Source: Minisyncoccota bacterium (GTDB lineage Bacteria; Patescibacteriota; Minisyncoccia; Phycocordibacterales; UBA9973). From it: DNA of 64,000 nucleotides. The translations under genes and the position numbers were made by a program. The notes beneath the pieces are model-generated. The model saw only the letters and a list, made by a program, of their open reading frames with translations. It did no database searches and had not been told where the DNA came from. The stretch spans positions 16,658 through 80,657 of the forward strand of contig JBDSNU010000007.1 of assembly GCA_039915165.1 (NCBI GenBank), written 5' to 3'. Positions 48,563 to 51,746 of the stretch are shown one piece after another; position 1 is the stretch's first letter, and each line of letters opens with the position of its first letter.

Positions 48563-48634
48563 GGCCCTATCGTCTAACGGTTAGGACGAATCCTTCTCAA
48601 GGATTAAATCGGGGTTCGATTCCCCGTGGGGTCA
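48563..48634 (+). tRNA. tRNA-Glu (anticodon CTC)
   Basis: Cloverleaf: acceptor GGCCCTA/TGGGGTC with two G-U pairs, anticodon stem AATCC/GGATT, loop TTCTCAA, T-arm CGGGG-TTCGATT-CCCCG. No encoded CCA. Confidence 0.8.
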
Positions 48635-50117
48635 CTTTAGGGAATTTTGACTCGTCAATTAGCAGTTTTAGCTTGAAAACACTGCATATTTTCGGTGTTC
48701 GTAAATTTACCCCATCGAAGACTATACCTTTAGGAAAGTCGAACTCTTGGAACTTTCGCCTTATTTCTAAAGAGCTTTTTTCCCAGAACAAGTGAGGGGC
48801 CTGCAATACCTGAGCCGAATATTTTATAAGATCATTGATGTTGATATTCTCATTAACCGCTGCTTTTGAAACCTCCCGTAATTCCTCATTTTCTGATTCA
48901 AGGCGCTTAACCCGTAGCTCAAAACTATTTTCACTGATACTCCCCTTTCCGTGTAAGTCGATTAGTACATCTATTTGTTGGTTGATTTCATCTATTCGTT
49001 TGTGTATTGCCGCACTCACATGGGCGTCGTTGACCGTCCGCTTGCCAAAGTGCTTTTCTAAATATTCTTTTAATGCGTTTAAATGCGAAGTATCAAAGGC
49101 AAATTGCGACAAGAATGCTATAAATTTCTGCTCCAATAGTTCCTTTCTGATGGTTGTTCCAGGCAAATGAAAGGAATAATAGGGATACTTTTTGGTTTTT
49201 CCTTTCGACCAGTAGCCAGTAAGTTGCTTTCCGTCCTCGTTAAGAACGAAACGTCTCAAAGGGAAATCGGGATTTTCTTTTAAGTACTGTTTAATGACAT
49301 TCTTTCGTCCCTTCAATGCTGCTTGAACATCGTCAAATAGTGGTTCAGGAATAAACGTTTCAAAGGTTGCATTAACGACTAACCCGAAATTTTTAATGAT
49401 TCCTTTATATAATGGGTTTCGCAGCAGTCTAAAAAAATATCCCCTGCTAACAGCACCTCCTGCATTGTTGGTCAAACCTTTTTCTTTCATCATTAACCTA
49501 ATGACCTCCGAAGAGTATCTCCGTTGGGAAATCAATTCAAATGCTTCCCGTACCAAAGGTGCCATCTCATTTGGCGCAATGTTGGCCTTATTCCCTATTT
49601 TGACATTGCTGTATCCCAGTGGCGCTTTCCACACGTATCGGCCTTCTTGCACAGCTTCTCGCATCCCTCCGACACTCCGCTCAGTTCGCACTTCATTATC
49701 AAACTGACTAACATTGGCGATAATATTTTCCATGAAGCGACCCGCAGGGGTGTCCTCAAAATGTTCAGATACTGACTTGATTTCTATATTATATCTTTTA
49801 AGCTTAACTTTTATATAACTATAATCAGCGATGTTGCGGCTAATGCGGTCAATCTTGTACGCGATGACTGCATTGACTGCTTCTTTTCTATCACCACAAT
49901 ATGCAAGCATACGCTGTAATTCCTTTCGATCTGCCGTTTTTGCGCTTTCACCCTTCTCAATAAAAATTTCTGCTATTTCGAGTCCCTGATTAAGGGCGTA
50001 TTCGCGGCAAAGCCGCTCTTGCGTTACAAGGCTGTTTCCTTCGTCCACTTGTTCTTTTGTAGATACTCTGCAATAAATAACGGCGCGCTTAGAGTTATTT
50101 ATTATTTCGCTTTTCAT
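48597..50117 (-). CDS. large serine recombinase (integrase)
   Basis: Resolvase-type catalytic domain with a nucleophile Ser (AVIYCRVSTKEQ) and conserved R/D residues, then a recombinase domain and a coiled coil (LRVKRLESENEELRE). The last 12 codons are the reverse complement of the tRNA-Glu 3' end. Confidence 0.85.
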   Translation of the reverse strand: MKSEIINNSKRAVIYCRVSTKEQVDEGNSLVTQERLCREYALNQGLEIAEIFIEKGESAKTADRKELQRMLAYCGDRKEAVNAVIAYKIDRISRNIADYSYIKVKLKRYNIEIKSVSEHFEDTPAGRFMENIIANVSQFDNEVRTERSVGGMREAVQEGRYVWKAPLGYSNVKIGNKANIAPNEMAPLVREAFELISQRRYSSEVIRLMMKEKGLTNNAGGAVSRGYFFRLLRNPLYKGIIKNFGLVVNATFETFIPEPLFDDVQAALKGRKNVIKQYLKENPDFPLRRFVLNEDGKQLTGYWSKGKTKKYPYYSFHLPGTTIRKELLEQKFIAFLSQFAFDTSHLNALKEYLEKHFGKRTVNDAHVSAAIHKRIDEINQQIDVLIDLHGKGSISENSFELRVKRLESENEELREVSKAAVNENININDLIKYSAQVLQAPHLFWEKSSLEIRRKFQEFDFPKGIVFDGVNLRTPKICSVFKLKLLIDESKFPKVTPRGIEPRFNP

Positions 50118-50631
50118 AAAAATATGCCTCAACCAAGATTTCGGCCAACTGATCCAATAATATTTCTATAGGTGGTTCCTGCCCCGTTAAACCCAAAGCA
50201 GAGCCACGCATAACGTCATTGTTGCTACACAATAAACCACGTGGCTCTGCTTTAGGTACGTTATCGTATAAGTTCTTAGAGGAACCATACAAATCAATAA
50301 AACGACTGTTGCTGTATTCTTTTAAAACAATCAAATTATTGCAAAAAAAAGGTTTCTGTTTAGTGTTCCACGTATCAACAATTTGATTAAAATCAGTATT
50401 GTCCTTTATCGATACTGGTGTTTTACTCCTGTCATGTGAAGTCCGCGTACTAAGCAAATTACCTTCTCTAATAAAGGTCCTTACACGATATCTTTTTAAT
50501 TTATTGAGATTTTGCGCTTCACCCAAATTACCCGGATCCACTATTATCTTAATACATACATGAAAATCCTTCCCTGTAACTTCATTAAACGCCGTATTCA
50601 ATGTATTGCAAAAGGCGTTAGGTACAATCAA
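50095..50631 (-). CDS. hypothetical protein (178 aa), upstream of and overlapping the integrase start
   Basis: ORF only. Likely co-transcribed with the integrase. Confidence 0.35.
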   Translation of the reverse strand: MIVPNAFCNTLNTAFNEVTGKDFHVCIKIIVDPGNLGEAQNLNKLKRYRVRTFIREGNLLSTRTSHDRSKTPVSIKDNTDFNQIVDTWNTKQKPFFCNNLIVLKEYSNSRFIDLYGSSKNLYDNVPKAEPRGLLCSNNDVMRGSALGLTGQEPPIEILLDQLAEILVEAYFYEKRNNK

Positions 50632-50786
50632 ATATAATGTTATTTGTGATGAATTGTTAATCCAGCAACGGCTTCAACAATGTTTTTTAAAACCTAATCC
50701 ATCTTACTATTTGGATTCCTGAATTATCGCGACGTCATCAATGAATTGGCGATTAATGCCCTAAATTTTTATTTAATCTGGCTAAA

Positions 50787-51131
50787 TCACTTGCGACATC
50801 TGTCCAAAATTCTTTCGTTTCTAAAAGATCCACCTTTAATGGGAACGTTTATCTGCAGCGAGCTGCTGTCAGATAGCTTTACGTATGCCTGCGGAGAGTT
50901 AGGAACGGCGATATGTTTTGTTGTTTGAGCAACAATGGTATCTTTTCCGTTTGGCAATTTCTCCAAGAACAACACGGTAACTTTCGTGATAGTGCCTATC
51001 TGAAAGCTTGTGTGGTGATACGAGGGAGAAGTGCGTGGATCCCAGAACTCAAGTTCTTTTTTGGCGGGTTTTTGTTTGCAACTTGCAAACAGTAAGCAAA
51101 GAATGGCTGAGAAAAATAAGGTCTTTTTCAT
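50787..51131 (-). CDS. small lipoprotein (114 aa)
   Basis: Signal peptide with lipobox LLFASC (MKKTLFFSAILCLLFASCKQ). Confidence 0.45.
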   Translation of the reverse strand: MKKTLFFSAILCLLFASCKQKPAKKELEFWDPRTSPSYHHTSFQIGTITKVTVLFLEKLPNGKDTIVAQTTKHIAVPNSPQAYVKLSDSSSLQINVPIKGGSFRNERILDRCRK

Positions 51132-51316
51132 GATTTATCTATATTTGATTGAGTGTGAATGTACTTGATTAACTAAATACACAATAGCACATTTTATGCT
51201 AAAAGTCAATAGATTTCTCTAGACACCCTTATGTTATATACAAGCCGGTTCCAATCCCTCCCCATGGGGTCATAAAAAAGCAGCCATATATGGACTGCTT
51301 CTAGAATTATTGCTGA

Positions 51317-51658: not shown

Positions 51659-51746
51659 AGTGCTTTAGTTTTTAATCATATTGCCCTATTGATCAAAAAA
51701 GTCAATAACAATTTAAAAAGCAGCCATTACAGCTGCTTTATTTGTT

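Follow-up and report, generated by a model that had tools for sequence, protein, structure and literature searches.

For the insertion of large DNA, serine integrases are the principal tools, and they are believed to avoid tRNA genes. Stacking of small units beside a fixed site is known from two other systems: integrons, which combine a tyrosine recombinase with attC hairpins and mostly promoterless cassettes, and the composite islands of staphylococcal cassette chromosome (SCC) elements, which accrete in tandem at the 3' end of orfX (rlmH) through the large serine recombinases (LSRs) CcrAB. In the literature we found, which includes a review (PMC8371274), an element attachment site (attP) within the integrase gene is described only for archaeal tyrosine integrases. 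In the SSV1 type, attP lies inside the integrase gene, a tRNA gene is the target, and integration splits the integrase gene. A large recombinase-discovery paper makes no mention of tRNA. The TIGER/Islander survey mapped 14 of 297 serine-integrase islands to t(m)RNA genes and called them previously unreported and in need of experimental proof (Mageeney et al. 2020, PMC7192596). Here we analyze a 64,000-nt stretch of a Minisyncoccota bacterium genome (hereafter the window; assembly GCA_039915165.1, contig JBDSNU010000007.1, positions 16,658 to 80,657), in which an LSR gene runs into the 3' end of a tRNA-Glu gene. A preliminary description of the window had called tRNA targeting by serine integrases uncommon, which agrees with how rarely it is documented (PMC7192596). 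Like the survey's islands, the present insert has a tRNA-gene target that was mapped computationally; the survey gives no mechanism and is not known to us to describe an attP-in-gene architecture, tRNA mimicry or Candidate Phyla Radiation (CPR) hosts. We consider it probable that an LSR-bearing unit integrated at the 3' end of tRNA-Glu through an attP site in its own recombinase gene, and that the insert now consists of this LSR unit plus one cassette (Table 1).

Table 1. Features of the insert and its borders (window positions).
Feature	Position	Strand	Evidence or remarks	Assigned role
tRNA-Glu(CTC), intact	48563-48634/5	+	ARAGORN; Rfam 60.2 bits	putative B' arm of attachment site
Putative attL core, TGGGGTCA(C)	48627-48635	unstranded	intact-LSR homology ends 48632-48640; junction codon common to 21 tRNA-fused loci	
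LSR open reading frame (ORF), 506 aa	48597-50117	-	ATG at 50117; Pfam matches to Resolvase and Recombinase	
Conserved small ORF, ~55-65 aa, ...EPPIEILLDQLAEILVEAYF...	50098-50262	-	overlaps LSR start; C-terminal part of called ORF178	
Conserved 17-bp hairpin, TTGTGTAGCAACAA loop	50192-50256	-	upstream of LSR start, inside conserved small ORF	
Relic of distal half of Mucilaginibacter-type LSR tail, TFPLKVDLLETKEFWTDVASDLARLNKNLGH*	50753-50857	-	tblastn, translation, tail hidden Markov model (HMM)	
ORF114, lipoprotein-like orphan ORF	50787-51131	-		presumed cassette gene
~110-nt repeat copy	51151-51283	-	P' half-site and promoter-like sequence	
Nfu113 terminator hairpin	51274-51300	-	homologous to hairpin directly after tRNA-Glu in L099	host gene terminator

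The recombinase gene ends within the tRNA, as the preliminary description had stated, and also as stated, its last codons are antisense to the 3' part of the tRNA. The C-terminal end reads ...KFPKVTPRGIEPRFNP*, and the final 12 codons with the stop (V-TPRGIEPRFNP-stop) are the reverse complement of tRNA-Glu positions about 35-74. The protein alignment with homologues is collinear to ...KFPKV and then diverges: the body of the window LSR reaches Val501 and is followed by 10 tRNA-encoded codons, and the tail of 25-55 residues on which intact homologues run on is missing. At the DNA level, homology to intact LSR loci is confined to window positions 50264-48632 (the small upstream ORF and the recombinase body) and ends at the last tRNA bases, where CAC (48633-48635) gives the conserved Val codon GTG on the opposite strand. 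Comparison with tRNA-Glu loci of related genomes had been proposed earlier as a check. Relatives carry the same tRNA-Glu without the LSR (L006, L093-L098, L099; loci are referred to by L numbers throughout), with unrelated DNA 3' of the tRNA, and none of them is an exact empty site. The window tRNA differs from those of the eight related loci by a compensatory T-stem pair, G-C replacing A-U, and by a C6 to U change that makes a U6-G67 wobble.

It is highly improbable that the junction is an assembly chimera at the tRNA or a fortuitous overlap of an ORF with a tRNA. tRNAs are often sites of contig breaks or wrong joins, and the Logan contigs of SRR26386600 break inside this tRNA with a 30-nt overlap. 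However, the locus, which belongs to a Candidatus Paceibacterota metagenome-assembled genome (MAG), recurs in two NCBI MAGs and in two Logan assemblies. A 27.5-kb Logan contig and the two NCBI MAGs show the identical arrangement flanked on either side by Paceibacterota genes, and more than 20 unrelated loci have their junction at this very codon. The SRR26386600 contig break was also considered as a sign of an empty site and rejected, since its branch point lies 6 nt inside the position expected for a polymorphism between the empty bacterial site (attB) and attL.

The shared codon emerged when we scanned GTDB species genomes with the LSR alignment, which yielded 80 homologous loci. An antisense tRNA 3' end lay within -2 to 0 nt of the aligned Val codon in 21 of the 80, and two further loci are cut by contig ends yet read as tRNA. 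The Val codon GTG corresponds to the antisense of tRNA nucleotides C72-A73-C74, and the tRNAs at fused loci are those for Ala, Glu, Lys, Arg, Leu, Ser, and Val. We aligned sequences at the Val codon and counted motif offsets from there. The T-loop antisense TCGAAC is at +14 in 21 of 22 tRNA-fused junctions. Intact genes carry [TA]C[GA]AAC, AAAAAC or TGGAAC at +19/+20 (38 of 53 by automatic scoring, most others by eye), so that the T-loop-like motif of intact homologues lies 5-6 nt farther out than in the tRNA (+19/20 versus +14). In serine integrases, a 5-bp outward shift of the motif contacted by the zinc-ribbon domain separates attP from attB half-sites (Rutherford et al. 2013, PMC3783163). 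Judged from the aligned half-sites, the family has this attP/attB geometry. Because intact genes continue past the Val codon as tRNA-like sequence with a shifted motif, the LSR gene can be taken to contain attP, with a tRNA 3' end as attB. The amino-acid motifs GKNT and FWN in the tail are the protein-level trace of the distal DNA motif.

In the mechanism we propose, attP would lie in the 3' part of the LSR gene, with crossover at or beside the conserved GTG codon. The codons after Val would form the P' arm, an imitation of the tRNA T arm and acceptor stem in which the T-loop-like motif is set 5-6 bp farther from the crossover, in keeping with attP geometry; as the P' arm imitates the 3' part of the tRNA, integration would leave the tRNA intact. 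Integration would fuse the LSR body to antisense tRNA codons, and the LSR tail would come to lie at the other end of the integrated unit. The crossover in the window would fall at the attL core and its Val codon. The predicted attB junction is ...CCCCGTGGGGTCA|TAAAAAAGCAGCC, and the predicted attP junction for the whole insert is ...CCCTCCCCATGGGGTCA|CTTTAGGGAATTT. The preliminary description had proposed attP within the integrase gene and recombination in the tRNA 3' end; the shared Val-codon junction and the motif shift support this proposal and put the crossover at the extreme 3' end.

Tails at the far end of fused units were found in other loci. L047 is a clean analogue: tRNA-Ala, LSR, a small ORF and cargo are followed by GTG and a 28-codon tail, VDYSIAFWNKFGKECFQLQEILRSKGNR*, with the host terminator just before the GTG. 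The pattern GTSSAC-N15-TGGAAC has nine matches in 98 loci, all on the LSR strand, for a chance expectation that we estimate at less than 1. Two of the nine are in intact LSR genes, and seven are 3.8-9 kb upstream of LSRs at CPR loci (six of these LSRs are tRNA-fused, and that of L062 is intact). The upstream matches come after host-like terminator hairpins, and each opens a reading frame of 25-30 codons. L047 and the upstream matches therefore indicate that integration splits the LSR gene: its body stays beside the tRNA, and its tail ends up at the opposite end of the unit. Among the other fused loci, a long direct repeat of the tRNA end was seen only in L075; little sequence shared between attL and attR is as expected for serine integrases. 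In L075, the final 18-25 nt of tRNA-Val recur as two direct copies (1415-1439 and 1495-1512), which lie about 8 kb upstream of an LSR fused to tRNA-Val.

The enzyme is a large serine recombinase, as its domain content and the geometry of its att sites indicate. Like the phage and integrative and conjugative element (ICE) LSRs (phiC31, Bxb1, A118/LI, TP901-1, SPbeta SprA, CcrAB), it has a Resolvase catalytic domain (PF00239, E 3.7e-32, residues 17-166) and a Recombinase domain (PF07508, E 1.2e-7, residues 189-276). It matches solved serine-integrase domains, among them the TP901-1 integrase catalytic domain (E 1e-14), and phage and ICE integrase profiles, among them phrog_95 integrase (E 3e-74, residues 10-460). 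The YCRVS motif is invariant in the family alignment. An alternative TTG start at 50132 would give 511 aa (ORF 48597-50132, minus strand). Profile positions 318-459 align weakly (E about 1e-3) with SprA 355-502, the zinc-ribbon/coiled-coil part of that protein. A further likeness to the phage and ICE enzymes is the distal att motif, 5 bp outward in attP relative to attB. Unlike them, the family targets the 3' ends of several tRNA species, carries attP inside the integrase ORF with the C terminus swapped on integration, and has a P' arm that mimics tRNA. The insert contains no phage genes; an IMG/VR scan with the LSR alignment, made with a phage origin in mind, found no relatives, and the LSR has no Pfam Zn_ribbon_recom match, with the usual Cys cluster not evident. 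The resemblance to SSV1-type integrases (attP inside the gene, tRNA target, gene split by integration) extends to layout; unlike those, the LSR belongs to an unrelated enzyme family with different chemistry, exchanges only the last 5-10% of the protein, and has its crossover at the very end of the tRNA, among its final nucleotides, and not in its interior. Three traits go beyond the literature we found: targeting of tRNA, an attP within the ORF, and mimicry of tRNA.

The closest relatives of the window LSR, 60-71% identical, are Bacteroidota proteins of 530-560 aa (Mucilaginibacter and others). At Bacteroidota loci, every LSR gene is intact and without an adjacent tRNA. Fused loci with a named phylum all belong to Patescibacteria/CPR but one (L085, Thermoanaerobaculia); the other fused loci have uninformative or doubtful labels, and none is labelled Bacteroidota. 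Doubtful taxon labels on several fused loci include 'uncultured Gammaproteobacteria' and third party annotation (TPA) assemblies. In a neighbor-joining tree covering L010-L089 and calculated without support values, fused genes are scattered among Bacteroidota clades, and tRNA-fused CPR LSRs nest in these clades at least four times. This nesting suggests, as far as such a tree can, repeated cross-phylum transfer. The nestings are the window LSR with Mucilaginibacter, L019 with L032, L053 with L046/L054, and L025 with L028.

DNA also appears, from locus comparisons, to have been inserted into the LSR gene's own attP in Bacteroidota. A second, orphan tail, on the same strand and starting at GTG, lies 0.5-6 kb downstream of intact LSR genes (L046 9507-11890 versus L054; L018 9530-11850; also L016, L028, L037, L041, L049, L051, and L052). 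L046 is L054 with 2.4 kb of DNA inserted exactly at the GTG codon, and L018 has a tandem duplication of the tail with a helix-turn-helix (HTH) gene.

We next turn to the far side of the window insert, which the preliminary description had read as one element with two cargo ORFs and a degenerate copy of the tRNA end as attR. The tRNA-3'-end-like repeat is GGTTCCAATCCCTCCCCATGGGGTCA, with exact coordinates 51247-51272 rather than the 51249-51277 given earlier. Its segment TCCCCATGGGGTCA at 51259-51272 is identical to the corresponding 14-mer of the tRNA at 13 of 14 positions, and apart from these two the window contains no match to the 14-mer with at most one mismatch (0.00 expected from 100 shuffles). 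In a looser Smith-Waterman scan with the whole tRNA 3' half, the repeat did not rank above chance matches in the window; its significance thus rests on the 14-mer, its position and the family evidence. On the minus strand the site reads as a P' half-site, ATG-ACCCCATGGGGAGGGAT-TGGAAC, which contains the acceptor-stem copy. A promoter-like TTGACT-17-TATTGT (51181-51209) belongs to the same repeat copy, and the P' site adjoins the Nfu113 terminator directly. That part of the earlier claim therefore stands which saw an att-type site beside host DNA. We take the Nfu113 terminator, tentatively and by its homology to the L099 hairpin, as the B arm of the original attB. The repeat was also considered as the displaced original 3' end of the tRNA and rejected: no T arm is possible, the tRNAs of relatives end TGGGGTCAC as in the window, and L099 has five copies.

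Related Paceibacterota show that this repeat is not private to the window insert. L099, reached via Nfu113 homologues, has the synteny Nfu ... tRNA-Glu(CTC) ... Gmad2-DUF3298-RmuC, and no LSR was found in the 16 kb fetched from its 34.5-kb contig. It carries five same-orientation copies of the ~110-nt repeat, located upstream of Nfu and in the interval from Nfu to the tRNA. Every copy reads GTG-ACCCCA-GGGGGAAGGAAT-TGGAAC (motif at +19), then TTGACT-17-TAAAAT, and is directly upstream of an ORF; the terminator hairpin after the L099 tRNA-Glu is homologous to the window's Nfu113 hairpin. Three copies each, flanking Nfu and further ORFs, are present in L100 and L101, and the window has one. The repeat thus bounds LSR-less cassettes in L099, L100 and L101, one of which occupies the orthologous position behind Nfu, and its copies upstream of ORFs lead us to read it as a P'-type site with promoter-like sequence that bounds small cassettes. 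As Nfu is flanked by repeats, it may itself be a cassette gene. The arrays occupy 7880-12013 in L099, ending at tRNA-Glu, and 3343-5609 in L100; one is also present in L101.

Between the recombinase and the repeat lies a relic of an LSR tail, detected by tblastn with many tail queries (best E 0.001-0.005) and by a tail HMM (E 0.002). With a tail relic inside the insert and a repeat that bounds cassettes in relatives, the 2.64 kb at 48636-51272 are better read as two units than as the single element described earlier. The first would be an LSR unit of ~2.2 kb comprising the LSR, a ~65-aa ORF, the conserved hairpin and ~460 nt, its end marked by the tail relic and its own far-end att site otherwise lost. 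Beyond the relic would lie one older cassette of ~0.42 kb, made up of the P' site, promoter-like sequence and ORF114, and abutting the Nfu113 terminator. In view of the tail relic, a right end of the insert at ~50836-50860, bordered there by host DNA, was also considered. On its own it would require that the ancestral tRNA end was non-functional and had no terminator, and we kept the position only as the internal boundary between LSR unit and cassette.

It is unlikely, in our judgment, that the 2.64 kb are after all one element, with attL in the tRNA, attR at 51247-51272, ORF178 and ORF114 as cargo, and a relic produced by tail replacement in a donor before integration. Such an element would account for the sequence TGGGGTCA common to attL and the right-hand repeat and for an attR that adjoins the host terminator, and its order (body, new tail and cargo, then the old tail) has a precedent in the Bacteroidota insertions exactly at GTG that push the old tail downstream (L046 versus L054, L018). 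Against this, the P'-promoter repeat bounds LSR-less cassettes in L099, L100 and L101, so that the ORF114 unit can stand alone, and the window relic lacks the att part that displaced Bacteroidota tails keep. The repeat family, together with the outward shift of its T-loop-like motif, likewise calls for revision of the earlier view of the right-hand copy as a degenerate tRNA end and attR. As for cargo, ORF178 (called at 50095-50631) is mostly an extension of the small ORF with its hairpin: conservation is limited to its last 55-65 residues, and the equivalents in L090 and L092 are ORFs of 64-65 aa that overlap the LSR start.

Several observations weigh against an LSR unit joined to an older cassette. 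(i) The recombinase phylogeny, proposed earlier as a check, places the window gene inside the Mucilaginibacter clade, whose P' arms do not resemble tRNA-Glu, and recognition of the repeat by the window LSR is therefore unproven. (ii) In the window P' copy, TGGAAC falls at +18, 1 nt short of +19, ATG stands in place of GTG, and reading in the LSR frame shows a frameshift; this off-register copy and the unlike native P' type make the activity of the LSR on these sites uncertain. (iii) With the GTG...GKNT att part missing from the tail relic, LSR unit and cassette do not meet at a clean att site. (iv) A simple model leaves unexplained the intact attP-bearing genes in Bacteroidota chromosomes. (v) The exact empty site (ORF182, tRNA, terminator, Nfu) was not found in a metagenome scan with Nfu113 or by BLAST of the flanks among fetched loci, and a tRNA-pattern scan gave six loci, none syntenic on the right side. 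(vi) Two predicted LSR proteins of the circular form are absent from a collection of 15 billion proteins, which is a weak test. The empty attB and the excised form that the preliminary description had proposed to look for were thus both missing from these searches. (vii) The LSR is skipped in the NCBI accession series; the annotation pipeline PGAP gives it no protein accession and may have annotated it as a pseudogene.

Some of these points would fit a fixed, decayed relic, in which the LSR is a C-terminally truncated pseudogene, the att sites are eroded and nothing moves now. We regard this as a real possibility that falls short of an even chance. It would account for the missing accession, the missing tail, the 1-nt deletion in the P' copy, the presence of the insert in every assembly seen, and the lack of a circular-form ORF in the protein collection. 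On the other hand, neither a frameshift nor a stop interrupts the 501-residue body, in which all residues invariant in the family are preserved, and an LSR cut off at exactly the Val codon is the usual form of the integrated gene, as more than 20 loci show. Decay would concern current activity rather than origin and is compatible with integration of an LSR unit beside a cassette; present-day mobility of the insert is unproven.

The arrays in relatives raise a broader reading, which we put forward tentatively and think somewhat unlikely: the LSR family may be a tRNA-anchored cassette-capture system, a serine-recombinase analogue of integrons, with P'-bearing cassettes stacked at the tRNA 3' end in Patescibacteria and at the LSR attP in Bacteroidota. 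Like integrons and SCC elements, the loci have small units, each with a recombination site, stacked in one orientation beside a fixed anchor; the L099 array, with several units of one orientation and the same site in each, ends at tRNA-Glu. A further likeness to SCC elements is that units accrete in tandem where a conserved gene ends (3'). Unlike integrons, the arrays have a tRNA anchor, LSR-type P' arms and promoter-like sequence in each unit, and the link between LSR and array is here inferred. LSRs would have built the arrays; what ties the two together is co-location in the window only. If this reading is true, repeated movement of the LSR family between Bacteroidota and CPR bacteria could point to physical contact between host and symbiont.

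The family is broad, with more than 20 integrated cases at seven or more tRNA species, and follows a readable rule: putative crossover at tRNA nucleotides 72-74, a P' arm that copies the acceptor and T arms with the canonical 5-bp shift, and an attP embedded in the coding sequence of the enzyme itself. attP and attB are therefore predictable from sequence alone, and the family supplies enzymes that naturally land at universally conserved genes. The attP-in-gene layout explains why annotation pipelines may treat such LSR genes as truncated. Cassette arrays and possible cross-phylum traffic are exposed in CPR bacteria, whose mobile elements are poorly known.

The remaining features of the insert concern the conserved small ORF, ORF114 and the promoter-like sequence. 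The hairpin inside the small ORF lies 60-75 nt upstream of the LSR start and was found in 48 of 75 homologous loci. In an alignment of 38 sequences selected for having the hairpin, paired cells make up 96%, compared with 78% for shuffles and about 50% for slid controls; compensatory changes occur at 18 of 20 pairs, and many pairs are G-U on the sense strand. It has no match among Rfam families and could be an RNA leader, an origin of transfer (oriT) or a protein-binding site. ORF114 was matched only by itself in a word-based search and only by short repeat matches in large proteins in an exhaustive search; it has a weak, non-decisive match to a Bacteroidota lipoprotein signal peptide. In L090 and L092, metagenome contigs with 70%-identical recombinases, the LSR sits inside a conjugative or mobilizable element and not at its edge, among genes for a relaxase, a TrwB-like coupling protein, ArdC, an nSTAND NTPase and SMODS/CBASS-like proteins. 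The promoter-like part of the repeat (51175-51213, TATTGACTTTT...) also occurs downstream of a GAPDH gene in L006 (2770-2808), and a weaker form lies upstream of Nfu113 in the window (51680-51707); by these occurrences, it may be a common promoter module of the lineage.

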